This document shows, piece after piece, positions 1-10,722 of a stretch of DNA of 10,722 nucleotides. This stretch comes from an uncultured Deinococcales bacterium. Its GTDB lineage: Bacteria > Deinococcota > Deinococci > Deinococcales > JAAFIG01. Where the stretch lies: contig CAXTKV010000180.1 of NCBI GenBank assembly GCA_964244895.1, positions 1 to 10,722 of the forward strand. Direction: 5' to 3'. Within the stretch, counting starts at the first letter, position 1; each line of letters starts with the position of its first letter. Both the position numbers and the translations under genes were made by a program. Below the pieces are notes generated by a model. It was not told where the DNA came from and did no database searches. It saw nothing but the letters and a program-made list of their open reading frames with translations.

Positions 1-375
1 TTTTTGATGCGCCAGTTTTTTCTTTCGTTGCCGGTTGAACTTGAGGAGGCCGCCACCCTGGACGGCGCGAGCACGCTGGGAACCTTCACCCGCGTGATGC
101 TGCCGCTGTGCGGCCCGGCGCTCGCAACGCTCGGCGTGCTGTCGTTCATGGCGTCGTGGAACAACTTCTTGTGGCCGCTGTTGATCGTCAGCGACCGCAA
201 TTTGATGACCCTGCCGCTGGCGCTGTCCACGCTTCAGAGCGTGTACCCCGGTCAGACGCAATGGAACCTGATCATGGCGGGCAGCGTGATCACGGTCGCG
301 CCGATGGTGCTGGTTTTCCTGCTCGCGCAGCGCTGGGTCGTGGAAGGTGTGGCGACCAGCGGGTTGAAGGGGTGA
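1..375 (+). CDS. Carbohydrate ABC transporter permease (MalG-like), C-terminal part; 5'-truncated by the window edge
   Basis: Frame is open from base 1 ([23 protein letters not shown] = EAA loop). Hydrophobic segments, SWNNFLWP motif and typical C-terminus '[16 protein letters not shown]'. Stop TGA at 373-375. Confidence 0.95.
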
Positions 376-404
376 TGCGCGTGCCGTGACCCCAAACCGG
401 ATGG

Positions 405-535
405 CTCGAGGAACACCGTCCCAGACGCGATTCTTGTGATTCAAAAAACGCCGTCCCAGACGGTCTTCCCAAAAAGCTCAGCTCGAGAAACCCCGCACCA
501 GCCGACCGACACGAGATCCGTCCAGCCCGTTTTTC
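405..535. repeat. Cluster of REP-like imperfect palindromic repeats
   Basis: CTCGAGGAACACCGTCCCAGACG (405-427), AAACGCCGTCCCAGACGGTCTT (446-467) and CGAGATCCGTCCAGCCCGTTTTTC (512-535). Same core as the copies at 4813-4935 and 7788-7848. Confidence 0.7.
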
Positions 536-546
536 AGGAGGTTCGT

Positions 547-1779
547 ATGAAACGATTCGCACTCGTCCTCGCCCTGTTCGCCGCCCTCGGTCTGGCGCTC
601 GCGCAGCAGACCGTGACGCTGAACTTCTTTTCGTTCACCACGGATGCCGGTCACGTCAAGGCGCTCGATTCGATCATCGCGGCCTTCCAGAAAGAAAACC
701 CCGGTATCACCGTCAAGTACACGACCGCGCCGTTCGACACGTACTTCACCAAGCTTCAGACGGACGTGGCCGCCGGGCAGGCACCGGACGTGTTTGAACT
801 GAACTACGAGAACTTCGTGACTTTCGCCTCGAAGGGCACGCTGCGCGAACTGGGCTCGTTAATGCGCAAGGACAGCTCGCTGGCGCCCGACACCTTCTAC
901 CCGGCGGCGCAGAACGCCTTCAAGTACCGCAGCGTCCAGTACGGCCTGCCGATGACCTTCTCGACGGTGGTGCTGTTCTACAACAAGGATCTGTTCGACA
1001 AAGCGGGCGTCGCCTATCCGACAAAAGCCTGGACCTGGAAAGAGGAACTCGAGGCCGCCAAGAAACTGACCGACACATCCAAGAAAGTCTGGGGCGATTT
1101 CCAGCCCGTGCAGTTCTGGGAGTTCTACAAGGTCGCGGCCCAGGCCGGTGGCGGCCTGCGGGTCAGCCCGAGCGTGCAGATCGACACGCCCAAGAACCGC
1201 GAGGCGCTGCACTGGCTGGTGGACAAGGTGCTGGTCAGCAAGGTCGTTCCCAGCGCCGCCGAGATGAGCGGCGTGGGTGACGGCGACATGTTCGTGAACG
1301 GGCAACTCGCCATGATCCACACGGGCATCTGGATGTTCGATACCTTCTCCAAGGCGAACTTCAAATGGGACATCGCGCTCGAACCCGGCGGCGCCAAAAA
1401 GGGCACGCACTTCTTCTCGAACGCCGCCGTCATCAGTAAAACCAGCAAGAACGCCGACGCCGCCTACAAATGGGTCAAGTACCTGGCCGCCAGCCCCGTG
1501 ACCGCCAGGACGCGCATCGATACGTCCTGGGAACTGCCCGCGTTTTCGCTCAGCCAGCGCGCCAACGTCGCGGCCTACCTGGAAAAGCCGATGCCCGCCA
1601 ACCGCGAGGCGGTCTTTGAATCCCTCCAGTACGCGGTCACACCCCCGGTGATCGAGAACCAGTCGCAGCTTCAGGACATCATCAATCAGGAACTCGAGGC
1701 CGCCAAGCTGGGCACCAAGACCGTCGAGCAGGCCCTTGGGAGCGCGCAGCAGCGCGTCGCGGCCCTCCTGGGAAAGTAG
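547..1779 (+). CDS. Sugar ABC transporter solute-binding protein (family 1), cycloalternan-binding-protein-like, 410 aa
   Basis: AGGAGG RBS at 536-541 precedes ATG 547. Sec signal peptide MKRFALVLALFAALGLALA-Q with no lipobox. Motifs YFTKLQT..A.G.APD.FELNYE, YNKDLFDKAG, TGIWMFD, THFF and NREAVFESLQY. Confidence 0.93.
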   Translation: MKRFALVLALFAALGLALAQQTVTLNFFSFTTDAGHVKALDSIIAAFQKENPGITVKYTTAPFDTYFTKLQTDVAAGQAPDVFELNYENFVTFASKGTLRELGSLMRKDSSLAPDTFYPAAQNAFKYRSVQYGLPMTFSTVVLFYNKDLFDKAGVAYPTKAWTWKEELEAAKKLTDTSKKVWGDFQPVQFWEFYKVAAQAGGGLRVSPSVQIDTPKNREALHWLVDKVLVSKVVPSAAEMSGVGDGDMFVNGQLAMIHTGIWMFDTFSKANFKWDIALEPGGAKKGTHFFSNAAVISKTSKNADAAYKWVKYLAASPVTARTRIDTSWELPAFSLSQRANVAAYLEKPMPANREAVFESLQYAVTPPVIENQSQLQDIINQELEAAKLGTKTVEQALGSAQQRVAALLGK

Positions 1780-1787
1780 GGGACGGA

Positions 1788-2852
1788 ATGAACGCGCCCA
1801 CCACCCGTTCCAATTCGTCACTCCCTTTGCGTCTCCTTCAGATCGGAATGGGTGGCTGGGGTCGCAGCTGGGCCGCCACGGTCGTTCCCGGCCTCGAGGC
1901 CGTGCAGGCCGTCGGATGGGTGGACGCGACCCCCCAGGCGCTCGAGGAGGCCCGAGGGGCGCTCGGGCTGCCGGAGGCGCTCTGTTTCAACAGTCTGCAC
2001 GATGCGCTCGAGAAGGTTCAGGCGGACGCCGTGCTGATCACCGCTCCGGCCATCGTGCACGCCCCGATCGCGATTCAGGCACTCGAGGCCGGACTGCACG
2101 TGCTGGTCGAGAAACCCTTCGCACCCACCCTTCAGGACGCGCGCCGGGTGGTCGAGGTGGCTCACGCACAAAAACGCAGGCTGATGGTCAGCCAGAATTA
2201 CCGCTTTCATCCCGCCCCGCAGCTCGCGGCGCAGCTGATTCGGGATCAGCGGCTGGGTCGGGTCGGGGGGGTTCACGTGGACTTCCGGCGCGACAACGTT
2301 CGGGCCTCACCGACCTCGCCGCACCTGCTCTGGCCGCAACCGTTGCTGCTCGACATGGCGATTCACCACTTCGACCTGATGCGTTTTGTCCTCGGTCGGG
2401 AAGTGCGCGAGATGCATTGCCGCGCCTGGAATCCGGCCTGGAGCCTCTACCGCGACCCCGCCAGCGCCGTGGCGACCATCGACTTCGGCGAGGGTGCCGT
2501 GGTCAGTTACAGCGGAAGCTGGGTCAGTCCGGGTAAGGTCACGCCCTGGGCGGGCGAGTGGCGCATCGAATGCGAGGACGGCGAGATCAGTTTCGTCAGT
2601 CGCGGCGACGTGGGCGTGCCGGACGCGGTTCGCGTGCGCCGCATCGGGAAGCGCCCACAACGGCTCCAGTTACCCGTCATGGCGCACACGGATCGGCTGG
2701 GAAGCCTGAACGCTTTCGTCGAGGCCGTCCAAACGGGCATCGAACCGATGAGTTCTGGACGAGACAACCTTCAGAGCCTCGAGATGTCCCTGGCCGCGAT
2801 CCGTTCAGCCCAAGAGGAACGCGCCGTGCGCCCCGAAGCTGAGCTGGTCTGA
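1788..2852 (+). CDS. Gfo/Idh/MocA family NAD(P)-dependent oxidoreductase
   Basis: Rossmann motif IGMGGWG, HVLVEKP, QNYRF and LLDMAIHHFD. Starts 8 nt after the SBP stop. Confidence 0.93.
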   Translation: MNAPTTRSNSSLPLRLLQIGMGGWGRSWAATVVPGLEAVQAVGWVDATPQALEEARGALGLPEALCFNSLHDALEKVQADAVLITAPAIVHAPIAIQALEAGLHVLVEKPFAPTLQDARRVVEVAHAQKRRLMVSQNYRFHPAPQLAAQLIRDQRLGRVGGVHVDFRRDNVRASPTSPHLLWPQPLLLDMAIHHFDLMRFVLGREVREMHCRAWNPAWSLYRDPASAVATIDFGEGAVVSYSGSWVSPGKVTPWAGEWRIECEDGEISFVSRGDVGVPDAVRVRRIGKRPQRLQLPVMAHTDRLGSLNAFVEAVQTGIEPMSSGRDNLQSLEMSLAAIRSAQEERAVRPEAELV

Positions 2853-2983
2853 ACCTCAATGACTCGAGAAGCCGGTTCTTCCTTCAAGATTCTGAAAGGT
2901 AAACGCCAGGGCTGGCGCGAGTTGATCGCCCGGTCACACCACCGAGCGGCCCGTCAGGGTCGTGGTGGCCCACCTCGAGACCT

Positions 2984-2998
2984 GGACGATGATCGTCC
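2984..2998. promoter_or_regulatory. Perfect 7-1-7 palindrome directly upstream of the GH15 ribosome-binding site
   Basis: GGACGAT-G-ATCGTCC, followed by GGAG at 3000-3003 and ATG at 3012. Function unknown. Confidence 0.3.
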
Positions 2999-3011
2999 TG
3001 GAGACAACGTG

Positions 3012-4091
3012 ATGTCGATGAAAAACGCCCATCTGGATATCCAGCTCATCCGGCAGTTTCAACACGCCTCGGGCGCGTACCCGGCCAGCCCGAGCTTCTC
3101 GCAGTACCCGCACTCGTGGTTGCGGGATGGTTCGTTCATCGCGCACGCGATGGATCGCGCGGGCTCGCACGCGAGCGCTCGAGCCTTTCACGGCTGGATC
3201 GCGCGCACGCTCGAGCCGCACGTCGATCACGCCGAATGGTTGATCCGCCAGGCGAGGGTGGGCGAACCCGTCCGACCCGCCGAAATGCTGCCCGCGCGCT
3301 TCAGCCTGAACGGGGAATGGTTGCGCGACGACGGCTGGCCGAACTACCAGCTCGACGGTTACGGTCAATGGCTGTGGTCGCTGACGGAGCACCTGGGGCG
3401 CACCGGAGAGGACAGGCTGCCCGCAGCGCTCGAGGACGCCGTCAGGATCGTTGGACGGTACGTACAGACCTTCTGGCGCGAGCCGTGCTCGGATTGCTGG
3501 GAGGAAAAACCCGATCTGGTTCACACCTCGACGCTGGCATCGATTCACGGCGGGTTGAAGGCGATCTCTCGGTTCCTGCCGGAATTCGCCGCATCCGCCG
3601 AGGAGGTGCGCGCGTTCATCCTTAAAAATTGCGTGCAGGACGGTCATTTCATCAAATCCATCGGTGATGGCAGCGTGGACGCGAACCTGATCTGGGTCTC
3701 GACGCCGTTCGAGGTCGTGCCCGCCTCCGACCCGTTGATGCGCGCCACCATCGCCGAGATCGAGCGCACACTGGTGCGCGACGGCGGCGTTATCCGCTAC
3801 GCCAGGGACGAATATTACGGCGCGGGCGCGTGGCTGTTGCTGACCGATTTTTTGGCCTGGCACCTGGCCATAGACGGAAACCTCGAGCGGGCGAGCGCGT
3901 ATCACGCCTGGGTCGAATCGATGCGCGAGTCCGCCGGTTATCTACCCGAGCAAGTCCCCATCTCGAGCACCGACCCGGCGCGGCTCGAGCACTGGATCGC
4001 AGAGTGGGGAACGTCAGCATCGCCGCTCTTGTGGTCGCACGCCATGCACCTGATCGCCGCATCTGAGCTGCGTTCGCCTGAGCGTTCCTGA
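3012..4091 (+). CDS. Glycoside hydrolase family 15, isomaltose glucohydrolase-like, catalytic domain only (about 359 aa, no signal peptide)
   Basis: GH15 motifs SWLRDG, QLDGYG, DCWEE (general acid), LPEQ (general base) and PLLWSHAM. GGAG at 3000-3003 favours ATG 3012 (GTG 3009 and ATG 3018 are alternatives) over the ORF-track start at 2859. Confidence 0.9.
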   Translation: MSMKNAHLDIQLIRQFQHASGAYPASPSFSQYPHSWLRDGSFIAHAMDRAGSHASARAFHGWIARTLEPHVDHAEWLIRQARVGEPVRPAEMLPARFSLNGEWLRDDGWPNYQLDGYGQWLWSLTEHLGRTGEDRLPAALEDAVRIVGRYVQTFWREPCSDCWEEKPDLVHTSTLASIHGGLKAISRFLPEFAASAEEVRAFILKNCVQDGHFIKSIGDGSVDANLIWVSTPFEVVPASDPLMRATIAEIERTLVRDGGVIRYARDEYYGAGAWLLLTDFLAWHLAIDGNLERASAYHAWVESMRESAGYLPEQVPISSTDPARLEHWIAEWGTSASPLLWSHAMHLIAASELRSPERS

Positions 4092-4796: not shown

Positions 4797-4935
4797 CTCG
4801 AGCTTTTAGGTGCGTTCCAGACGGTGTTTTCTCGAGTTTGAAAGCGCTGAACAGTCTTCTCCTCTATTCGAGAGCACCGTCCAGTACGATCAAAACTCGA
4901 TTCTCGAGAACACCGTCCAGGACGGTGTTTCTAGA
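4797..4935. repeat. Cluster of REP-like palindromic repeats downstream of the oxidoreductase beta gene
   Basis: CCAGACGGTGTTTTCTCGAG (4817-4836), TCGAGAGCACCGTCCAGTACG (4868-4888) and CTCGAGAACACCGTCCAGGACGGTGTTTCTAGA (4903-4935), which contains the perfect palindrome AACACCGTCC-A-GGACGGTGTT (4909-4929). Confidence 0.8.
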
Positions 4936-5818
4936 TCAGTGCCCGTTTGAGCGCCTCGAATCGCGCGGCGTCCACAGCCGTCCCGCGCAGGGCTATGGGC
5001 GTCCCTGGGTTCATCCTGATGCTGTGCGATTGCGCATCGAAGGGCTCGCGGTCGGTGGATTCGTAGAAAATACCCATCGGAATCTTATCGCCCCACTCGA
5101 GGCAGCGCGCGAAGGCCGCCGCGCGGTCGTCCGGCGCGTGCCCAACGGCGTTGACATCGTAAATGCGTTCGCGGAACCACTCGTAGGTGTACTCCTTGCG
5201 GTTCCAGGTGACGCACGGTTGCAGGATGTCCACCAGCGCGTAACCGGGGTGCGCGATGGCGCGCTGGATCACGCTGACCATGTTTTTCAGGTCGCCGGAA
5301 AAGGTGCGCGCCACGAAGCCCGCGCCGGAGGCAATCGCCATCGCCAGGGGGTTGATCGCGTATTCCAGAAGCCCTTCGGGCGTGGTCGAGGAGATGTAAC
5401 CGTGGTCGCTGGTCGGGCTGGCCTGACCCTTCGTTAAACCGTAGGTCTGGTTGTTCTGCAGGATGTGCGTGAAGTTGATGTTGCGCCGCATGGCGTGAAT
5501 CCAGTGGTTGCCGCCCTCGCCCAGACCGTCGCCATCGCCGGTCACGGCCAGCACGGTCATGGTGTGGTTGGCGAGCTTGAAGCCCTGAGCGGCGGGCAGG
5601 GATCGCCCGTGCAGCGTCTGCCAGCCATTCGTGCGGATGTAATCGGGCAGTTTGGAACCGCAGCCGATACCCGAGAAGATCATCACGCGGTGCGGTTCGA
5701 TCTCGGATTTCACCAGGGCTTGCTGCAAACCAGCCAGGATGCCGTAATCGCCGCACCCGGCGCACCAGGTCACGTCTTCGGAATAGATCGGTCGGTAATC
5801 CTTGACGGCGACGGTCAC
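4931..5818 (-). CDS. korB: 2-oxoacid:ferredoxin oxidoreductase subunit beta (TPP-binding); 2-oxoacid specificity not determinable
   Basis: WCAGCGD, SGIGC, LHGR, TPP motif GDGD...NN, YGLTKGQASPT and LQPCVTWN. GTG start overlaps the alpha-subunit stop (GTGA) with a GGAGGT RBS. Confidence 0.95.
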   Translation of the reverse strand: MTVAVKDYRPIYSEDVTWCAGCGDYGILAGLQQALVKSEIEPHRVMIFSGIGCGSKLPDYIRTNGWQTLHGRSLPAAQGFKLANHTMTVLAVTGDGDGLGEGGNHWIHAMRRNINFTHILQNNQTYGLTKGQASPTSDHGYISSTTPEGLLEYAINPLAMAIASGAGFVARTFSGDLKNMVSVIQRAIAHPGYALVDILQPCVTWNRKEYTYEWFRERIYDVNAVGHAPDDRAAAFARCLEWGDKIPMGIFYESTDREPFDAQSHSIRMNPGTPIALRGTAVDAARFEALKRALI

Positions 5819-7635
5819 GAGCGCACCTCCCCTTGCGGTGCAGGGTTCGCCCGCACCTCTTCCGGCTCGAGGCGAGCCTGTAGTTTGCTTTCACCGAAGA
5901 CCCGCTCGAGCACCTGATCCACAATCCACTGCGGCGTGAACGGTCGCCCGTCGTACTTGGTGATGTGGTGGTGCATGGCGATTCCCGTCTCCATACGGAT
6001 CATCAGCGCGAGTTGTGAGGTGTAATTCTGTTCGACGCTGACGAGCTTCTTGGCCTTCTCGAGCATGGCTTGCGCGGAGGTCGGGAAGGGTTGAAGATCG
6101 CCGAACTGCAACAGGTTGGCGCGCCCGCCGAGCCGATCTACGGCCTCGCGCAGGCTCTGGTAGGTGCTGCCCCAACCGACCAGCGTGACCTCGGCATCGG
6201 CTGCACCGTAGAGTTCCGGCGCGCGCATCTCGAGTCGCGCGCCCTGGAGCTTCTTCATGCGCTTTTTCATCATGCGGTTGCGGTTCTCCGGGTCTTCCGT
6301 GATGCCGCCGTGCTCGGTGTGCTCGTCGCTCATGCCGTGGACGAAGGCTTTCGGGTGACCGACGATGGCGCGCGGGCTGATGCCATCGTCGGTCAGCTGG
6401 TAGCGCCCGTAAGAGTCGTCCGGCAGCTCGTCCAGCGCGGCGTAATCGAGCGTCTTGGCGCGGTCAACTTCCGACTGCACCTTCTCGAGGCTGAACGCAT
6501 CCGGCTCCACGTCGTAGACCAGGTGCGAGAGGTGCAAGCTCGAGAGCACGATCACCGGCGTCTGGTATTTTTCGGCCAGATTGAAGGCTCGCGCTGCCGT
6601 CTGGAACGCGTCCTCGAGATCCTTGACGGCCAGAATGATGCGCGGGAACTCGCCGTGGCCCGCGCCCAGCATGGTCGTCAGGTCGGATTGCTCGTCGCGG
6701 GTCGGCATTCCGGTGCCGGGGCCACCGCGCTGCACGACCAGCACGACGATGGGAACCTCGTTGATGCCCGCCAGGGACAGGTGCTCGACCATCAGGTCGA
6801 AACCGCCGCCGGATGATCCGGTCATGGCCCGCAAGCCCGACCACGACGCACCCAGAGCCGCACTGATGGCCGCGATCTCGTCCTCGACCTGGTGCGCGAC
6901 GATGCCTAAACCCTCCTTGGAGGCGTTGATCAAGTATTCAAAGGCGCTCGACCACGGCGTCATCGGGTAGCCCGAGATGAACTTGCAGCCCGCTGCCAGC
7001 GCCCCCAGCGCGAACGCCTGGTTGCCGTGAACCAGCATTCTGGGCGGCAGCGTCAGCGGCTTCGGCAGCTTGTACGGGAAGGCGGGCGCGGCGGATTTGG
7101 CCCACTCCAGCCCGGCCAGGCCGACTTCGATATTTTTTTCGGCCAGGTCGGCGCTTTTCTTGCCGAAGTTGCGGCGCATGATCTCCGCCATCGGCGTGAA
7201 ATCCATGCCGGACAATCCCGCCGCCACGCCGAGCGCGGCGGTGTTGGCCATGATCTTGTTGCCGCCCACGTCCACGGCGAGCTTTTCCAGCGGTGCAGCC
7301 AGAGGCAGGTGCCCGCCCGCGATGACCTGGTTCTCGTCCACGTCGCTGCGGTTGGCGTCGTAGACGTAGGCCGCACCCGGAGCCAATTCGTGTTTGTGGT
7401 GGCGGTAACTGGGTTTGTCCAGACCGATCAGAACGTGCGTCTGGTGCGCGTGGGTTCGCACGATCTGGTCGCTGGCCCGGATGTGGTACGAGTTGTGCCC
7501 GCCCCTGATGCGCGATTCGTAATCCGCCACGCCGAAAACGTGATACTCGCGGGACAGGGCTCTGGCGAAGCCCGCACCGGAGCTTTCCACGCCCTGCCCG
7601 GCCTCGCCACCGATCGTGAAGACGACATCATTCAT
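5815..7635 (-). CDS. korA: 2-oxoacid:ferredoxin (acceptor) oxidoreductase subunit alpha with N-terminal gamma-like domain
   Basis: IGGEAGQGV, YESRIRGG, GNQA, SGYPMTP, EDEIAA, QRGGPGTGMPT..EQ, VGWGST and VEQNY. Strong AAGGAGG RBS. Confidence 0.95.
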   Translation of the reverse strand: MNDVVFTIGGEAGQGVESSGAGFARALSREYHVFGVADYESRIRGGHNSYHIRASDQIVRTHAHQTHVLIGLDKPSYRHHKHELAPGAAYVYDANRSDVDENQVIAGGHLPLAAPLEKLAVDVGGNKIMANTAALGVAAGLSGMDFTPMAEIMRRNFGKKSADLAEKNIEVGLAGLEWAKSAAPAFPYKLPKPLTLPPRMLVHGNQAFALGALAAGCKFISGYPMTPWSSAFEYLINASKEGLGIVAHQVEDEIAAISAALGASWSGLRAMTGSSGGGFDLMVEHLSLAGINEVPIVVLVVQRGGPGTGMPTRDEQSDLTTMLGAGHGEFPRIILAVKDLEDAFQTAARAFNLAEKYQTPVIVLSSLHLSHLVYDVEPDAFSLEKVQSEVDRAKTLDYAALDELPDDSYGRYQLTDDGISPRAIVGHPKAFVHGMSDEHTEHGGITEDPENRNRMMKKRMKKLQGARLEMRAPELYGAADAEVTLVGWGSTYQSLREAVDRLGGRANLLQFGDLQPFPTSAQAMLEKAKKLVSVEQNYTSQLALMIRMETGIAMHHHITKYDGRPFTPQWIVDQVLERVFGESKLQARLEPEEVRANPAPQGEVRS

Positions 7636-7744
7636 TCACGCCCTCCTTTTTCGACGGGTGGGCGCTTCAGCGACCCATCCTGGGTGCAGGGAAGACGATG
7701 CGAGGGCGATGCCTGCACGAATTGTCGAATCAGGGATCAGCTTA
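7636..7744 (-). promoter_or_regulatory. Putative -10 element (TAAGCT, 7744-7739) and structured 5' leader of the korA-korB operon
   Basis: Nested inverted repeats: 7650-7655/7724-7729, 7684-7690/7712-7718 and 7656-7665/7670-7680. Segment 7702-7708 is complementary to 7639-7645, which overlaps the SD. No convincing -35. Confidence 0.4.
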
Positions 7745-7787
7745 CGCCTCGGGCCTGAGAAGGGGCTCCGGCTTGGCTGCTCGAGCG

Positions 7788-7848
7788 CGAGAAGACCGTC
7801 CAGCACGCGTTTTCTCAGATATCAAGATTCGCGTGCTGGACGGTCTCA
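7788..7848. repeat. Inverted pair of REP-like repeats (REPIN/BIME-like)
   Basis: Perfect 17-bp inverted repeat AGACCGTCCAGCACGCG (7793-7809) / CGCGTGCTGGACGGTCT (7830-7846) with a 20-nt spacer, flanked by CTCGAG at 7780 and 7863. Confidence 0.8.
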
Positions 7849-7878
7849 CCTGGACGTTGAGCCTCGAGCATCACCGCG

Positions 7879-8973
7879 TCAATCGAGCGATTCGAGCGAT
7901 CCAAAATCGGGTTCCTGGAGCGGTGCGCGGGTCGGCTCACTGGAGCGCATCATCACGATCTGCTCGAGGTCTTGAAAGCTTCGGGTGGTCTGGAGGCTCA
8001 TCGCACCGACCGGGCACGAAACCACGCAGGCATTGCAGCCGTTGCAGGCGGCAACCTCGAGATTCAAGCGAATCGTACCGTCGAGATGGGTTTTGCGGGT
8101 GATCGCGTCCGTTGGGCAAAGAACCTCGCAGACCTGGCAGAAGCTGCAGGATTCGTCGACTGCGGGCGCTGGCCAGTACTGGGGCGCGCCATCCGCAGGG
8201 CGGGGCTTGAGCGCGCGCCTGCGCCAGACCCATTCATCGCCGATGCGGCCCGGTTCGGGCAGCCCGTCCACGCCGGGTAAAGGCCGGTCGGGGATTACCT
8301 GCGCCAGACCCCGCCTGGCGCTGCCCCACAACGCGCCGAGTGCGCCGCGCCGCGAGACTGGCTTGGGCGCTGGAGCGCTCAATTTTGGAGCGGAGCCGGG
8401 TTCGAGATCATTCCAGGAGACCATCTGAACGCGATGGCGCCGCGCTGTCGGCGCGGCGTTGGGCAGGTTCTGGCGGTAGCTTTCGGCGGTCTTGCGGTTG
8501 GCGCGCACCGCGTCGGGAACGTCGGCGCTGCCAATTTTGCAGGCGCTGCACGATCCGTGAATCAGATCGAGATTCTGGCCCCAGGCGGCGCTGGCGAGCA
8601 GGTGCGCCGGGGTGATGCGCGCCAGGCACGCGACCTCCGGGCCATCGCCGGGAACCTCCGCGCAGCGCAAACTCGCCGGGACGGAGTTGCAGTCGGGGTT
8701 GGCCGTACCCTGATCCTTGAGCTTCCCCAAGACGGGCAAGAGGTCGTACTCGAGCGCTCCGCTCGGGCAGGCTTGCACGCACAACCCGCATCCCGTGCAG
8801 GCATCGCTGAGAATTTCGACGCGATCGGTTAACCGCACCGCGTCGTGCGGGCAGGCCCGCTCGCAGAGGTCGCAACCGCCGACCGCGTGCCGCTCGAGCA
8901 AGCAGCGCTCGCCCGTGTAACGCGGTCGAAGGTCGGAAAGTTGCAGTCCCGCATCCAGTAAAACCTTCAGCAT
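7879..8973 (-). CDS. Multi-[4Fe-4S] ferredoxin-like (polyferredoxin) protein
   Basis: Four cluster motifs: C-x9-CDLCERACP, CTGCGLCVQACP, CSFCQVCEVLCP and CNGCNACVVSCP. Additional central cysteines (LRC, VACL, CSAC). GAGG upstream of ATG. Confidence 0.9.
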   Translation of the reverse strand: MLKVLLDAGLQLSDLRPRYTGERCLLERHAVGGCDLCERACPHDAVRLTDRVEILSDACTGCGLCVQACPSGALEYDLLPVLGKLKDQGTANPDCNSVPASLRCAEVPGDGPEVACLARITPAHLLASAAWGQNLDLIHGSCSACKIGSADVPDAVRANRKTAESYRQNLPNAAPTARRHRVQMVSWNDLEPGSAPKLSAPAPKPVSRRGALGALWGSARRGLAQVIPDRPLPGVDGLPEPGRIGDEWVWRRRALKPRPADGAPQYWPAPAVDESCSFCQVCEVLCPTDAITRKTHLDGTIRLNLEVAACNGCNACVVSCPVGAMSLQTTRSFQDLEQIVMMRSSEPTRAPLQEPDFGSLESLD

Positions 8974-9020
8974 AGAACGGGCCTCACGGACATTTCAGGC
9001 CCGAGGATTCGAGCGGGGCA

Positions 9021-9263
9021 TCAGCTCGAAGGCTCAGAGGTCGACTCGAGCGCTTTTTTGGCCTCGAGCTTGCGGTTGGGTTTGGGCGGTTCCCGGTCCT
9101 GAAGGCCGAGATCCAGGTCGCCTTTGAGTTCGCTGACGCCCTTCTTGAATTCGCCGATGCTCTGCCCGAGACCCCGCCCGAGTTCGGGCAAACGCTTGGC
9201 TCCAAACAGCACGACGGCCAGCAAAACGATGATGGCAATTTCGGTGACTCCGAGTCCGAACAT
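9021..9263 (-). CDS. tatA: Twin-arginine translocase TatA/TatE subunit (80 aa)
   Basis: MFGLGVTEIAIIVLLAVVLFGAKRLPELGRGLGQSIGEFKKG: TM helix, FG hinge, amphipathic helix. AAGGAG RBS places the start at 9263, not 9299. Confidence 0.95.
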   Translation of the reverse strand: MFGLGVTEIAIIVLLAVVLFGAKRLPELGRGLGQSIGEFKKGVSELKGDLDLGLQDREPPKPNRKLEAKKALESTSEPSS

Positions 9264-9332
9264 GGCGGTCTCCTTGTGATTCTGAAGATATCGGTGCAAC
9301 TCTGCGCGAATGATCCGGGTTTTCTCGCGGCT

Positions 9333-9366
9333 CCAGGGGGTGTCATCCGTCGATCACACCCCCTGG
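9333..9366. other. Strong intergenic stem-loop between the Rieske-fusion gene and tatA
   Basis: CCAGGGGGTGT (9333-9343) / ACACCCCCTGG (9356-9366), perfect 11 bp with a 12-nt loop. No U-tract on the transcribed (minus) strand. Confidence 0.6.
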
Positions 9367-9388
9367 GCTGGTTTTCTCAGACTTCAGG

Positions 9389-10722
9389 TCACTGCAAGTA
9401 GATGCCGTCCGTGAACGCCTTGATGACCAGTGCCGCCAGGGCGGTCTTGGCCGGGGCGGTCGGAGCCGCGCCGGACTCGAGGTTAAAGGTCGCCTGGTGG
9501 CACGGGCAGGTCAGCAGGTGGTTGGCATCCGGCCCGACATCGAGGACATCGCAGCCCTGATGGGTGCAATGGCGGCTGAACGCGATCAGGTTCATACCGT
9601 TGACCGCGATTCCACCGGTTTGCAGGGCACTCGAACGGTAGATGATCCCGCCGCGGTCGCTGCCGAGCGGTGCGGCAAAATCTTTCCACGAACCGACGCT
9701 CGGAAAGTCCGTCAGGAGCGCGACTTTCGTGCCCGTGGTCGCGGCGGGAATGTTGACCACGACGCTGGTGGCGGGCGTGCTGGCGCGGGTGTTCCCGGCG
9801 GCATCGTAGGCTTTGGCGGTGTAGGCGTGCGTGCCGTTGTCGGCGTTGGTCAACGCGACGCTCTGGGTGTACGGGGCGGCGGTCTTCGAGCCGAGCAGGG
9901 TCGCGCCGTCGTAGAACTCGACTTTCGTGACGCCGACGTTATCGCTGGCGGTCGCGGTCAGCGTGATCGAACCCGCCGCCGTGACATTCAAGCTCGAGCT
10001 CGAGAGGCTGACCGTCGGTGGCGTGGTATCGGCGGGCTGACCGATGTTGACCACGACCGCGACCGCCGGAGAACTGCTGGCGCTGTTGTTGGCGGCGTCA
10101 AAGGCTTTGGCGATGTAGTTGTGCGTGCCGTTGTTGGCGTTGGTGAAACTGACGGCCTGCGTGTAAGGCGCGCTGGTCTTGGTTCCGAGCAGGCTTCCGC
10201 CTTCGTAGAATTCAACTTTGGTCACGCCGACGTTGTCGCTGGCGGTGGCAGTCAGCGTGATCGTTGCGGCTGCCGTGACATTCAGGCTCGAACTCGAGAG
10301 ACCGATGGTCGGGGCGGTCGTGTCCGCCGGATTGCCAGTGATGTTGACGACCACCGTCACAGACGGGGAACTCACGGCGCTGTTGTTGGCGGCGTCAAAA
10401 GCTTTGGCGATGTAATTGTGCGTACCGTTGTTGGCGGCAACAAAATTCAGATCGAAGCTGTACGGTGCGGCTGTCTTGGCTCCGAGCAGCGTGGCGCCTT
10501 CGTAGAACTCAACCTTGCTGACACCGACGTTGTCCGCAGCGGTCGCGGTCAACGTGACCTTCCCAGCGGCGGTCAGGTTGGCGCTCGAGGCCACCAGGCT
10601 GACCGTCGGCGGCGGGGTATCGGCGGTTGTGCAGTCTTTTTTGATCTTAACCATAATCTGTTCGGTGGACAATACCTTGCCGCTTTTGAGGTAGATCTTG
10701 GCGGTGAAATCCCGCTCGGATT
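9389..10722 (-). CDS. Tandem bacterial Ig-like domain protein with C-terminal Rieske [2Fe-2S] domain; 5'-truncated
   Basis: Frame stays open to the window edge (...SERDFTAKIYLKSGKVLSTEQ...). Three ~98-aa repeats DTxxPT...ATAxDNVGVxKVEFY...NGTHxYxAKAxDAAxN, then Rieske boxes CTHQGC (9551-9568) and CPCH (9497-9508). Confidence 0.9.
   Translation of the reverse strand, partial: SERDFTAKIYLKSGKVLSTEQIMVKIKKDCTTADTPPPTVSLVASSANLTAAGKVTLTATAADNVGVSKVEFYEGATLLGAKTAAPYSFDLNFVAANNGTHNYIAKAFDAANNSAVSSPSVTVVVNITGNPADTTAPTIGLSSSSLNVTAAATITLTATASDNVGVTKVEFYEGGSLLGTKTSAPYTQAVSFTNANNGTHNYIAKAFDAANNSASSSPAVAVVVNIGQPADTTPPTVSLSSSSLNVTAAGSITLTATASDNVGVTKVEFYDGATLLGSKTAAPYTQSVALTNADNGTHAYTAKAYDAAGNTRASTPATSVVVNIPAATTGTKVALLTDFPSVGSWKDFAAPLGSDRGGIIYRSSALQTGGIAVNGMNLIAFSRHCTHQGCDVLDVGPDANHLLTCPCHQATFNLESGAAPTAPAKTALAALVIKAFTDGIYLQ
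9749..10621 (-). repeat. Three tandem intragenic repeats of about 295 nt encoding Ig-like domains
   Basis: Units begin at 10621, 10324 and 10030 (periods 297 and 294 nt). About 60 nt at 10081-10139 matches 10378-10436 with three synonymous differences. Confidence 0.92.

Follow-up and report, generated by a model that had tools for sequence, protein, structure and literature searches.

A predicted Tat-exported, Ig-stalked Rieske lipoprotein in a candidate envelope redox gene cluster of Deinococcales

We analysed contig CAXTKV010000180.1 (C180) of an uncultured Deinococcales bacterium (assembly GCA_964244895.1, here G000; 5.1 Mb in 328 contigs, 91% complete), the whole of which forms the 10,722-nucleotide (nt) window of this study and one end of which carries most of a gene, here called Ig-Rieske, that joins immunoglobulin (Ig)-like domains to a C-terminal Rieske [2Fe-2S] domain. 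Our favoured reading, for which we regard the chances as evenly balanced, is that Ig-Rieske encodes an electron carrier of an envelope redox module, a [2Fe-2S] protein that is exported by the twin-arginine translocation (Tat) system, anchored by a lipid and held on a long tether. In respiratory and photosynthetic complexes, the textbook setting of Rieske proteins, a short hinge holds these proteins next to cytochrome b or a catalytic subunit. Neither the Rieske domain nor the notion of a tethered carrier is new; what is not described within the full-text literature we searched is the stalked lipoprotein architecture and its gene cluster.

Open reading frames (ORFs) and Pfam matches bore out the arrangement that the first-pass annotation had read on one strand of the window, namely Ig domains with a C-terminal Rieske domain, then tatA, a four-cluster Fe-S protein and korAB. 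The 443-amino-acid (aa) ORF of Ig-Rieske matched Big_7 in three stretches (E-value (E) 5.2e-46) and Rieske PF00355 with 36.4 bits against a cut-off of 20.3 (E 5.1e-9), and its Ig repeats correspond to a DNA tandem repeat with a period of 294-297 nt and 77-80% matches. The gene is laid out as follows:

9389..10722, minus strand: Ig-Rieske lipoprotein gene, 3' part, 443 codons plus stop (ORF 9389-10720, open at the contig end; three Pfam Big_7 matches plus Rieske)
10637..10720, minus strand: tail of the divergent N-terminal Ig-like domain, continuing the domain encoded on contig C167 (Big_7, E 1.9e-8)
10343..10636, minus strand: Big_7 Ig repeat 1 (Pfam; repeat motifs DTPPPTVSL...VVVNI; DNA tandem repeat)
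10046..10342, minus strand: Big_7 Ig repeat 2 (Pfam; repeat motifs; DNA tandem repeat)
9749..10045, minus strand: Big_7 Ig repeat 3 (Pfam; repeat motifs; DNA tandem repeat)
9392..9748, minus strand: short linker and Rieske [2Fe-2S] head (Pfam Rieske; box I and box II)
9551-9568, minus strand: Rieske box I, CTHQGC, intact (residue 385 of the 443-aa ORF)
9497-9508, minus strand: Rieske box II, CPCH, intact (residue 405 of the 443-aa ORF)

Because the window is a whole contig, the gene was cut by an assembly break in its repeats and not by the choice of window. Its missing 5' end, about 108 further codons including the signal, lies on contig C167 of the same genome (positions 1-450, minus strand). 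The contig ends, C180 10595-10722 and C167 1-128, overlap by 128 nt with 6 mismatches, which suggest strain variation; the assembly broke at the Ig repeats and probably mixes two strains. P0001, a 551-aa protein from another assembly, matched the N-terminal piece from C167 at 148 of 150 positions and the C180 ORF at 423 of 442; as it is colinear with both, the full protein comprises a signal, four Ig-like domains and the Rieske head. In the AlphaFold2 model of P0001, built on 18 sequences, the signal is disordered and is followed by four beta-sandwich domains and the head (predicted local distance difference test (pLDDT) 83.4). With this full-length model as the Foldseek query, the match list was filled by tandem-Ig rods, the best of them including titin I65-I70 and two adhesin extenders (4p99, 6xi1).

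The first-pass annotation had also proposed that the true N-terminus would carry a twin-arginine signal, possibly that of a lipoprotein, and the retrieved upstream sequence agrees. The C167 N-terminus has a twin-arginine (RR) motif, a hydrophobic stretch and the lipobox LLVGC (MHMNRRQAVQALGWGGATLLVGC), P0001 has the same, and the divergent Big_7-like domain follows. Read from sequence, these are the RR motif, hydrophobic stretch and lipobox cysteine of a class II Tat lipoprotein, and the lipobox predicts cleavage and lipidation. The signal type appears to be conserved: assigned by pattern, an RR motif plus lipobox occurs in all 16 long forms among our 22 aligned Rieske relatives and in 4 of the 6 small forms, the other two being one with a lipobox outside the pattern and one that is N-terminally cut.

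The Rieske head is predicted to bind a [2Fe-2S] cluster, the ligands C-x-H and C-x-x-H being kept in 22/22 aligned relatives. By sequence it is closest to the extracytoplasmic high-potential Rieske proteins AioB and QcrA, and its closest solved relatives are AioB (8r3a_B, E 4.8e-6) and actinobacterial QcrA. None of the corresponding NCBIfam models was reached, whether bc-type (QcrA model NF050121, 44.1 versus 275 bits; proteobacterial model TIGR01416, 16.3 versus 97.4 bits) or AioB (TIGR02694, 22.5 versus 95.65 bits). The head belongs to the Rieske domain family but lacks the tested defining features of bc-type subunits and of AioB. Nor were the usual partners encoded nearby: cytochrome b genes are missing from C167, C180 and five related clusters, and the six clusters examined (those of G000 (C167 plus C180), G143, G141, G140, G137 and G187) contain neither an AioA/molybdopterin subunit nor any other catalytic gene. 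Only two Cytochrome_B matches occur in the whole of G000, both on contig C64.

A search with the 134-residue head against 1.84 billion representative proteins returned 616 matches at E <= 1e-3 and 14 at E <= 1e-10. The top full-domain matches were all long proteins (492-917 aa) in which the head is C-terminal, and next came proteins of 145-157 aa with 35-40% identity over the whole domain. In long proteins of 451-917 aa the signal and head are constant and the number of Ig repeats varies from about 3 to 8, as estimated by a crude motif count. Two head subtypes can be told apart: one, which includes the C180 protein, has an extra bc-type cysteine pair (CTHQGC...CPCH), and the other, a sub-lineage, has lost it (CTHAGT...CQDH). 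In a tree, 9 of the 10 Ig-fused heads formed one clade (support 100/100) and the heads of the second Rieske type described below formed another (100/99), both nested among small lipoprotein Rieske proteins and apart from the oxygenase-type Rieske domains of G000. P0021 and P0023 carry three Rieske heads in tandem.

Across 363 genomes of the order Deinococcales, a head-like match at E <= 1e-8 was present in 45, including 17 of the 18 other genomes of the C180 family, and long forms were found only in G000, G137, G140, G141 and G143, all of that one family, and in G187 of another. G000 itself has 12 Rieske-domain ORFs, among them a stand-alone small form at C18:27468-27980. The small Tat-lipoprotein Rieske proteins share the RR motif, the lipobox and the head type with the long ones, but they have no stalk, only some 30-50 residues separating anchor from head, and the copy on C18, unlike Ig-Rieske, is not in a cytochrome and barrel cluster. 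A separate protein search returned 77 loci, of which we examined 10; two of the 77 match the whole protein and most match the Ig repeats only. Source names are missing or uninformative, such as 'chitinase' on one fragment and 'Rieske Fe-S protein' on the small forms.

The first-pass annotation saw no cytochrome b or AioA partner downstream of the Rieske domain. The absence of partners holds for that side only: upstream, beyond the contig end, C167 carries the conserved partners on the same strand, namely a second Rieske lipoprotein (Rieske 2), a 508-aa secreted protein with a predicted barrel, a YceI-like protein and a pentahaem cytochrome c. Two of these genes are placed as follows:

C167:3839-4651 (locus L083), minus strand: Rieske lipoprotein 2, with its own RR motif and lipobox
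C167:2311-3837 (locus L083), minus strand: 508-aa secreted protein, named 'hypothetical protein' in the sources

Together with the window, the cluster reads (tethered Rieske 2) - barrel - YceI-like - pentahaem cytochrome c - Ig-Rieske - extra tatA - (polyferredoxin). The order barrel - YceI - cytochrome - Ig-Rieske was found in G000, G143, G141, G140 and G187, with two Ig-Rieske genes each in G141 and G140; the G137 cluster is a 3.8-kb contig only, carrying Ig-Rieske - tatA. Rieske 2 has a tether of 91 residues that is 71% proline, with PPPPPPGPT repeats, and its stop codon directly adjoins the beginning of the barrel gene. In G187 and G183, relatives of Rieske 2 have two heads in tandem.

The cytochrome has 273 aa and five CXXCH motifs and matches Pfam Cytochrome_C7 and the MtrC/MtrF domain II/IV family. 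Its N-terminus is a hydrophobic segment ending in A-x-A that reads as a cleavable signal peptide, so we do not call it membrane-anchored, and we rejected an assignment as a NapC/NrfH-type quinol dehydrogenase, no such family having been matched in Pfam or NCBIfam. It occurs in 33/363 genomes: 3 of the 18 others in the C180 family, and 12/23, 17/68, 0/125 and 0/128 in other families. We examined eight cytochrome loci with their flanks, from among these 33 genomes. YceI adjoins the cytochrome in all eight; the 508-aa barrel gene is present in six, each with at least one adjoining Rieske lipoprotein gene, and Rieske genes are missing from the two loci that lack the barrel (G146 and G209). In G000 (C167:4889-6990), G187, G146 and G209 the cluster adjoins genes for an OmpR-type regulator and a histidine kinase; G143 has a kinase fragment upstream. 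In NCBIfam the pair comes closest to the heavy-metal regulator (227.5 versus 279.2 bits) and the heavy-metal sensor (207.9 versus 292.55 bits) models, both below cut-off. In G000 the regulator and kinase belong to a stretch divergent from the cluster (C167:4889-7938, plus strand) that also encodes a 314-aa protein; this protein has a repeat region rich in K, E, P and D, and its C-terminal domain was found again upstream of the G143 cluster.

The 508-aa protein is likely to be a large outer-membrane barrel, as judged from its structure model, which has an N-terminal Ig-like domain and 26 antiparallel strands (pLDDT 74.2). The best Foldseek matches of the model were the FimD pore, AlgE and porins, with E down to 2.3e-6. 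In a VIA-align comparison with 48,161 chains, 50 of the 50 matches listed were beta-barrel membrane proteins, mostly from bacterial outer membranes; among these listed matches OccAB1 (Z 15.3), PapC (Z 15.2) and MtrB (Z 14.9) tied, and MtrB gave the longest alignment (344 residues). The best ESM Atlas scores, for a hypothetical cluster and for inverse-autotransporter barrels, were 0.84 against a lead level of 0.9 and serve as a hint only.

Downstream of Ig-Rieske, the window continues on the same strand with two genes:

9021..9263, minus strand: tatA paralogue, 80 aa (Pfam TatA_B_E, E 9.8e-18; 63.6 bits versus 21)
7879..8973, minus strand: polyferredoxin-like protein, 364 aa, with two 2x[4Fe-4S]-type domains (Pfam Fer4 families at both ends)

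G000 has three tatA-family genes and one tatC, and the copy adjoining tatC is on contig C111, which makes the C180 gene an extra paralogue. The linkage to tatA that the first-pass annotation expected to recur does so: tatA follows Ig-Rieske in 5/6 clusters and in all five genomes of the family that carry Ig-Rieske. Gaps of 125 nt (Ig-Rieske/tatA), 47 nt (tatA/polyferredoxin) and 243 nt (polyferredoxin/korA) separate the genes; a scan of 7400-9600 found no promoter-like or terminator-like sites, which neither supports nor contradicts co-transcription.

The place of the polyferredoxin in the module, also proposed at first pass, stood only in part: a copy is linked in 3/6 clusters, but the family is order-wide, the linked copy is a fast-evolving paralogue, and its kin normally stand alone. 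The protein has Fer4 matches in three stretches, with dicluster families at residues 33-73 and 273-328, and three canonical CxxCxxCxxxCP motifs plus one variant as read from its sequence; its best solved relatives are the MvhB (E 1.5e-21) and FwdF polyferredoxins, and the lack of an N-terminal signal predicts a cytoplasmic location. The family is present in 348/363 genomes of the order, a tally that includes one unpublished genome (G324), and it is usually stand-alone with no constant neighbours. Genomes with the cluster have a second copy, placed after tatA in G000, G143 and G141. We rejected a housekeeping linkage of polyferredoxin and tatA, since 0/24 stand-alone polyferredoxin loci had tatA or kor within about 1.5 kb. 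Before its second ferredoxin domain the polyferredoxin family keeps an internal SRRxAL-like motif (VSRRGALGAL in C180, SRREALQHL in G143) that is reminiscent of the N-terminus of NapF-type proteins. In G140 the place of the polyferredoxin after tatA is taken by a 741-aa protein with a CSECH haem motif (L009:10120-12342, plus strand), and in G143 the gene after the cluster-linked polyferredoxin (L006:11577-12371, plus strand) encodes a Dps-like (ferritin-like) protein that has a signal-like segment at its N-terminus, which hints at a link with iron.

These observations can be assembled into a working mechanism for the tethered carrier. The protein would fold and take up its [2Fe-2S] cluster in the cytoplasm, be exported by Tat with the help of the dedicated TatA paralogue, and be lipid-anchored at Cys23. 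An Ig domain is about 4 nm long, so a rigid rod of four would set the Rieske head about 15 nm from its anchor. There the head would pass electrons to or from the pentahaem cytochrome and a partner located at or within the outer-membrane barrel, and the Ig stalk would, as we infer, bridge the thick Deinococcales envelope. The polyproline-tethered Rieske 2 would solve the same distance problem in another way, with a reach similar to or longer than that of the Ig rod at the polyproline rise of about 0.3 nm per residue, and its presence next door suggests that distance is a selected feature. The cytoplasmic polyferredoxin paralogue might, as a guess, serve in maturation or in export proofreading of the Tat substrate. 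Candidate activities of the module are metal oxidation or reduction and detoxification of oxidants.

A bolder version, which we think unlikely to be correct as a whole, would make the cluster a new trans-envelope conduit in Deinococcota. Rieske heads on Ig or polyproline rods would here replace a multihaem 'wire', the rigid rods spanning the thick periplasm and the cell wall from the membrane to a 26-strand outer-membrane barrel. The barrel would work alongside the pentahaem cytochrome and a lipid or quinone carrier of the YceI-like kind, and the module would be served by a dedicated TatA and controlled by a metal-sensing two-component system.

Several results weigh against the tethered-carrier reading. 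Electrons cannot pass along Ig domains, so a swinging or docking head is needed, and the cluster encodes no inner-membrane quinol dehydrogenase or cytochrome b. P0011 and P0019 have Rieske heads at both ends of the rod, which a simple anchor-to-target picture does not predict (the N-terminal head of P0011 has C-x-x-x-H instead of C-x-x-H in box II). The G187 cluster lacks both tatA and the polyferredoxin, and those of G140 and G137 lack the polyferredoxin; the three cluster-linked polyferredoxins group together (ultrafast bootstrap 94, SH-like approximate likelihood-ratio test 91), but on long branches, which leave the grouping only moderately secure. The barrel, too, has weak points: the 508-aa protein matched no Pfam or NCBIfam family, its model was built on 9 sequences only and has a predicted TM-score (pTM) of 0.49, and the TM-scores of its Foldseek matches are low (0.14-0.31).

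The strongest competing explanation, which we still consider unlikely, makes the stalked lipoprotein a redox or metal sensor that reports the redox state at a set distance in the envelope to the histidine kinase encoded next door. Stress kinases of other bacteria are activated by envelope lipoproteins, and from such work a fixed stalk length would suit ruler-like signalling; an OmpR-type regulator and a kinase do stand beside the cluster in G000, G187, G146 and G209, with heavy-metal families as their best, if below-cut-off, models. However, the same two-component system accompanies the YceI-cytochrome pair in the Rieske-less clusters of G146 and G209 and so does not need the Rieske protein, the cluster partners are electron-transfer proteins, and the stalk varies from about 3 to 8 repeats between close relatives. 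We judge it improbable that Ig-Rieske is instead the AioB-like small subunit of a periplasmic or surface oxidoreductase, carrying a signal-less catalytic partner through Tat and holding that partner on its stalk: AioB is its best solved relative by sequence, and in Aio the Tat signal is on the Rieske subunit (PMC13673990), yet the head scores far below the AioB model and none of the six clusters encodes a molybdopterin or other catalytic subunit.

More improbable again, in our view, is an alternative Rieske subunit for a cytochrome b complex encoded elsewhere in the genome. The two extra bc-type cysteines are kept (CTHQGC, CPCH) and actinobacterial QcrA is among the best relatives, but both cytochrome b genes are unlinked, the bc-type models are missed by a wide margin, a sub-lineage lacks the extra cysteines, and docking at a quinol site fits poorly with a rod some 15 nm long; the anchor is moreover a lipobox and not an uncleaved transmembrane signal, by the class definition in PMC13673990. 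An adhesin or structural envelope protein with a vestigial Rieske domain is the explanation to which we give the least credence. Surface proteins often carry Big_7 repeats, the match is to repeats alone at most of the 77 loci returned, and one fragment bears the name 'chitinase'; against this, all four cluster ligands are kept throughout the 22 relatives, nine of ten Ig-fused heads form a fully supported clade and the neighbours are redox proteins.

The first-pass annotation knew of no described protein with this architecture, and neither did our sources. Full-text literature searches found no Ig-fused or lipoprotein Rieske proteins and no such cluster, with subscription journals and supplements outside their coverage; 'Rieske lipoprotein' and kindred phrasings occurred 0 times in that literature, and none of the names in the source databases points to a described protein with an Ig stalk and a Rieske domain. 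As a further comparison, cytochrome c_y of Rhodobacter has an electron-carrying head on a long membrane-fixed linker and works by tethered diffusion, but its head is a c-type haem domain, its linker is flexible and its partners are bc1 and oxidases, whereas Ig-Rieske has a rod of folded domains. Adhesin Ig extenders (4p99, 6xi1) likewise use a tandem-Ig rod to hold a functional domain off the cell; the cargo of Ig-Rieske is instead a redox domain and its anchor an N-terminal lipid.

Among characterized Rieske proteins, QcrA/PetA/PetC and AioB have in common with Ig-Rieske the extracytoplasmic Rieske fold and Tat export, and the extra cysteine pair is also present in the C180 protein. They have a short tether and a place next to cytochrome b or AioA, and their signal helix stays uncleaved (PMC13673990), whereas Ig-Rieske has a lipobox, a four-domain rod and no cytochrome b or AioA gene nearby, and falls far below the cut-offs of their family models. 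The accessible part of that Tat review places Rieske proteins under its uncleaved- and internal-signal classes, treats lipoproteins as a separate class and makes no mention of a Rieske lipoprotein. Extra TatA proteins whose genes lie apart from tatC, and which are believed to prefer certain substrates, are described for Campylobacter jejuni (tatA2), Bacillus (TatAd/TatAy) and E. coli (TatE) in PMC4148689 and PMC13673990; unlike the known operon-linked TatA paralogues, the C180 gene directly follows a Rieske lipoprotein gene.

MtrB has 26 strands, the number in the 508-aa barrel model, with which it also gave the longest alignment, but its Z score ties with porins and usher pores, and we take this as a resemblance of the model and not as kinship with MtrB. 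In MtrCAB, as in the Geobacter ext system, a large barrel gene lies beside multihaem cytochrome genes (in ext together with a Rieske gene). Mtr/Pcc-type conduits use a periplasmic deca- or octahaem cytochrome inside the barrel and a multihaem lipoprotein at the surface; the G000 cluster has one cytochrome gene, with five haems and not ten, and encodes no outer-surface cytochrome. The nearest described gene-cluster analogue is Geobacter extHIJKLMNOPQS, which encodes a porin-like protein, multihaem cytochromes, a cytochrome b and ExtO, a Rieske protein of 14 kDa (PMC5877670); it differs in the detail of every component, the Rieske proteins of the present cluster being long-tethered lipoproteins.

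If the tethered-carrier reading is true, it would represent a different use of the Rieske fold, with a carrier whose reach is set by repeat number (3 to 8 domains). It could explain how electrons move between the membranes of bacteria with very thick, layered envelopes, and it may point to a redox activity towards metals or oxidants that has gone unrecognized in Deinococcales and the thermophiles related to them. Since one of the genomes with the cluster is nearly complete, in three contigs, there may be a cultivable host.

Downstream of the polyferredoxin gene come korA (alpha subunit) and korB (beta subunit) of a 2-oxoacid:ferredoxin oxidoreductase:

5815-7635, minus strand: korA (Pfam POR_N/POR)
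4931-5818, minus strand: korB (Pfam TPP_enzyme_C/PFO_beta_C)

The first-pass annotation had noted korAB after the polyferredoxin gene. The genes are linked in C180 only (1/6 clusters), and we rejected their membership of the module on finding no kor match in loci L006, L104, L105, L106 and L148. On the plus strand, positions 436-4091 hold a sugar-use cluster that encodes an extracellular solute-binding protein, a Gfo/Idh/MocA oxidoreductase and a family 15 glycoside hydrolase.

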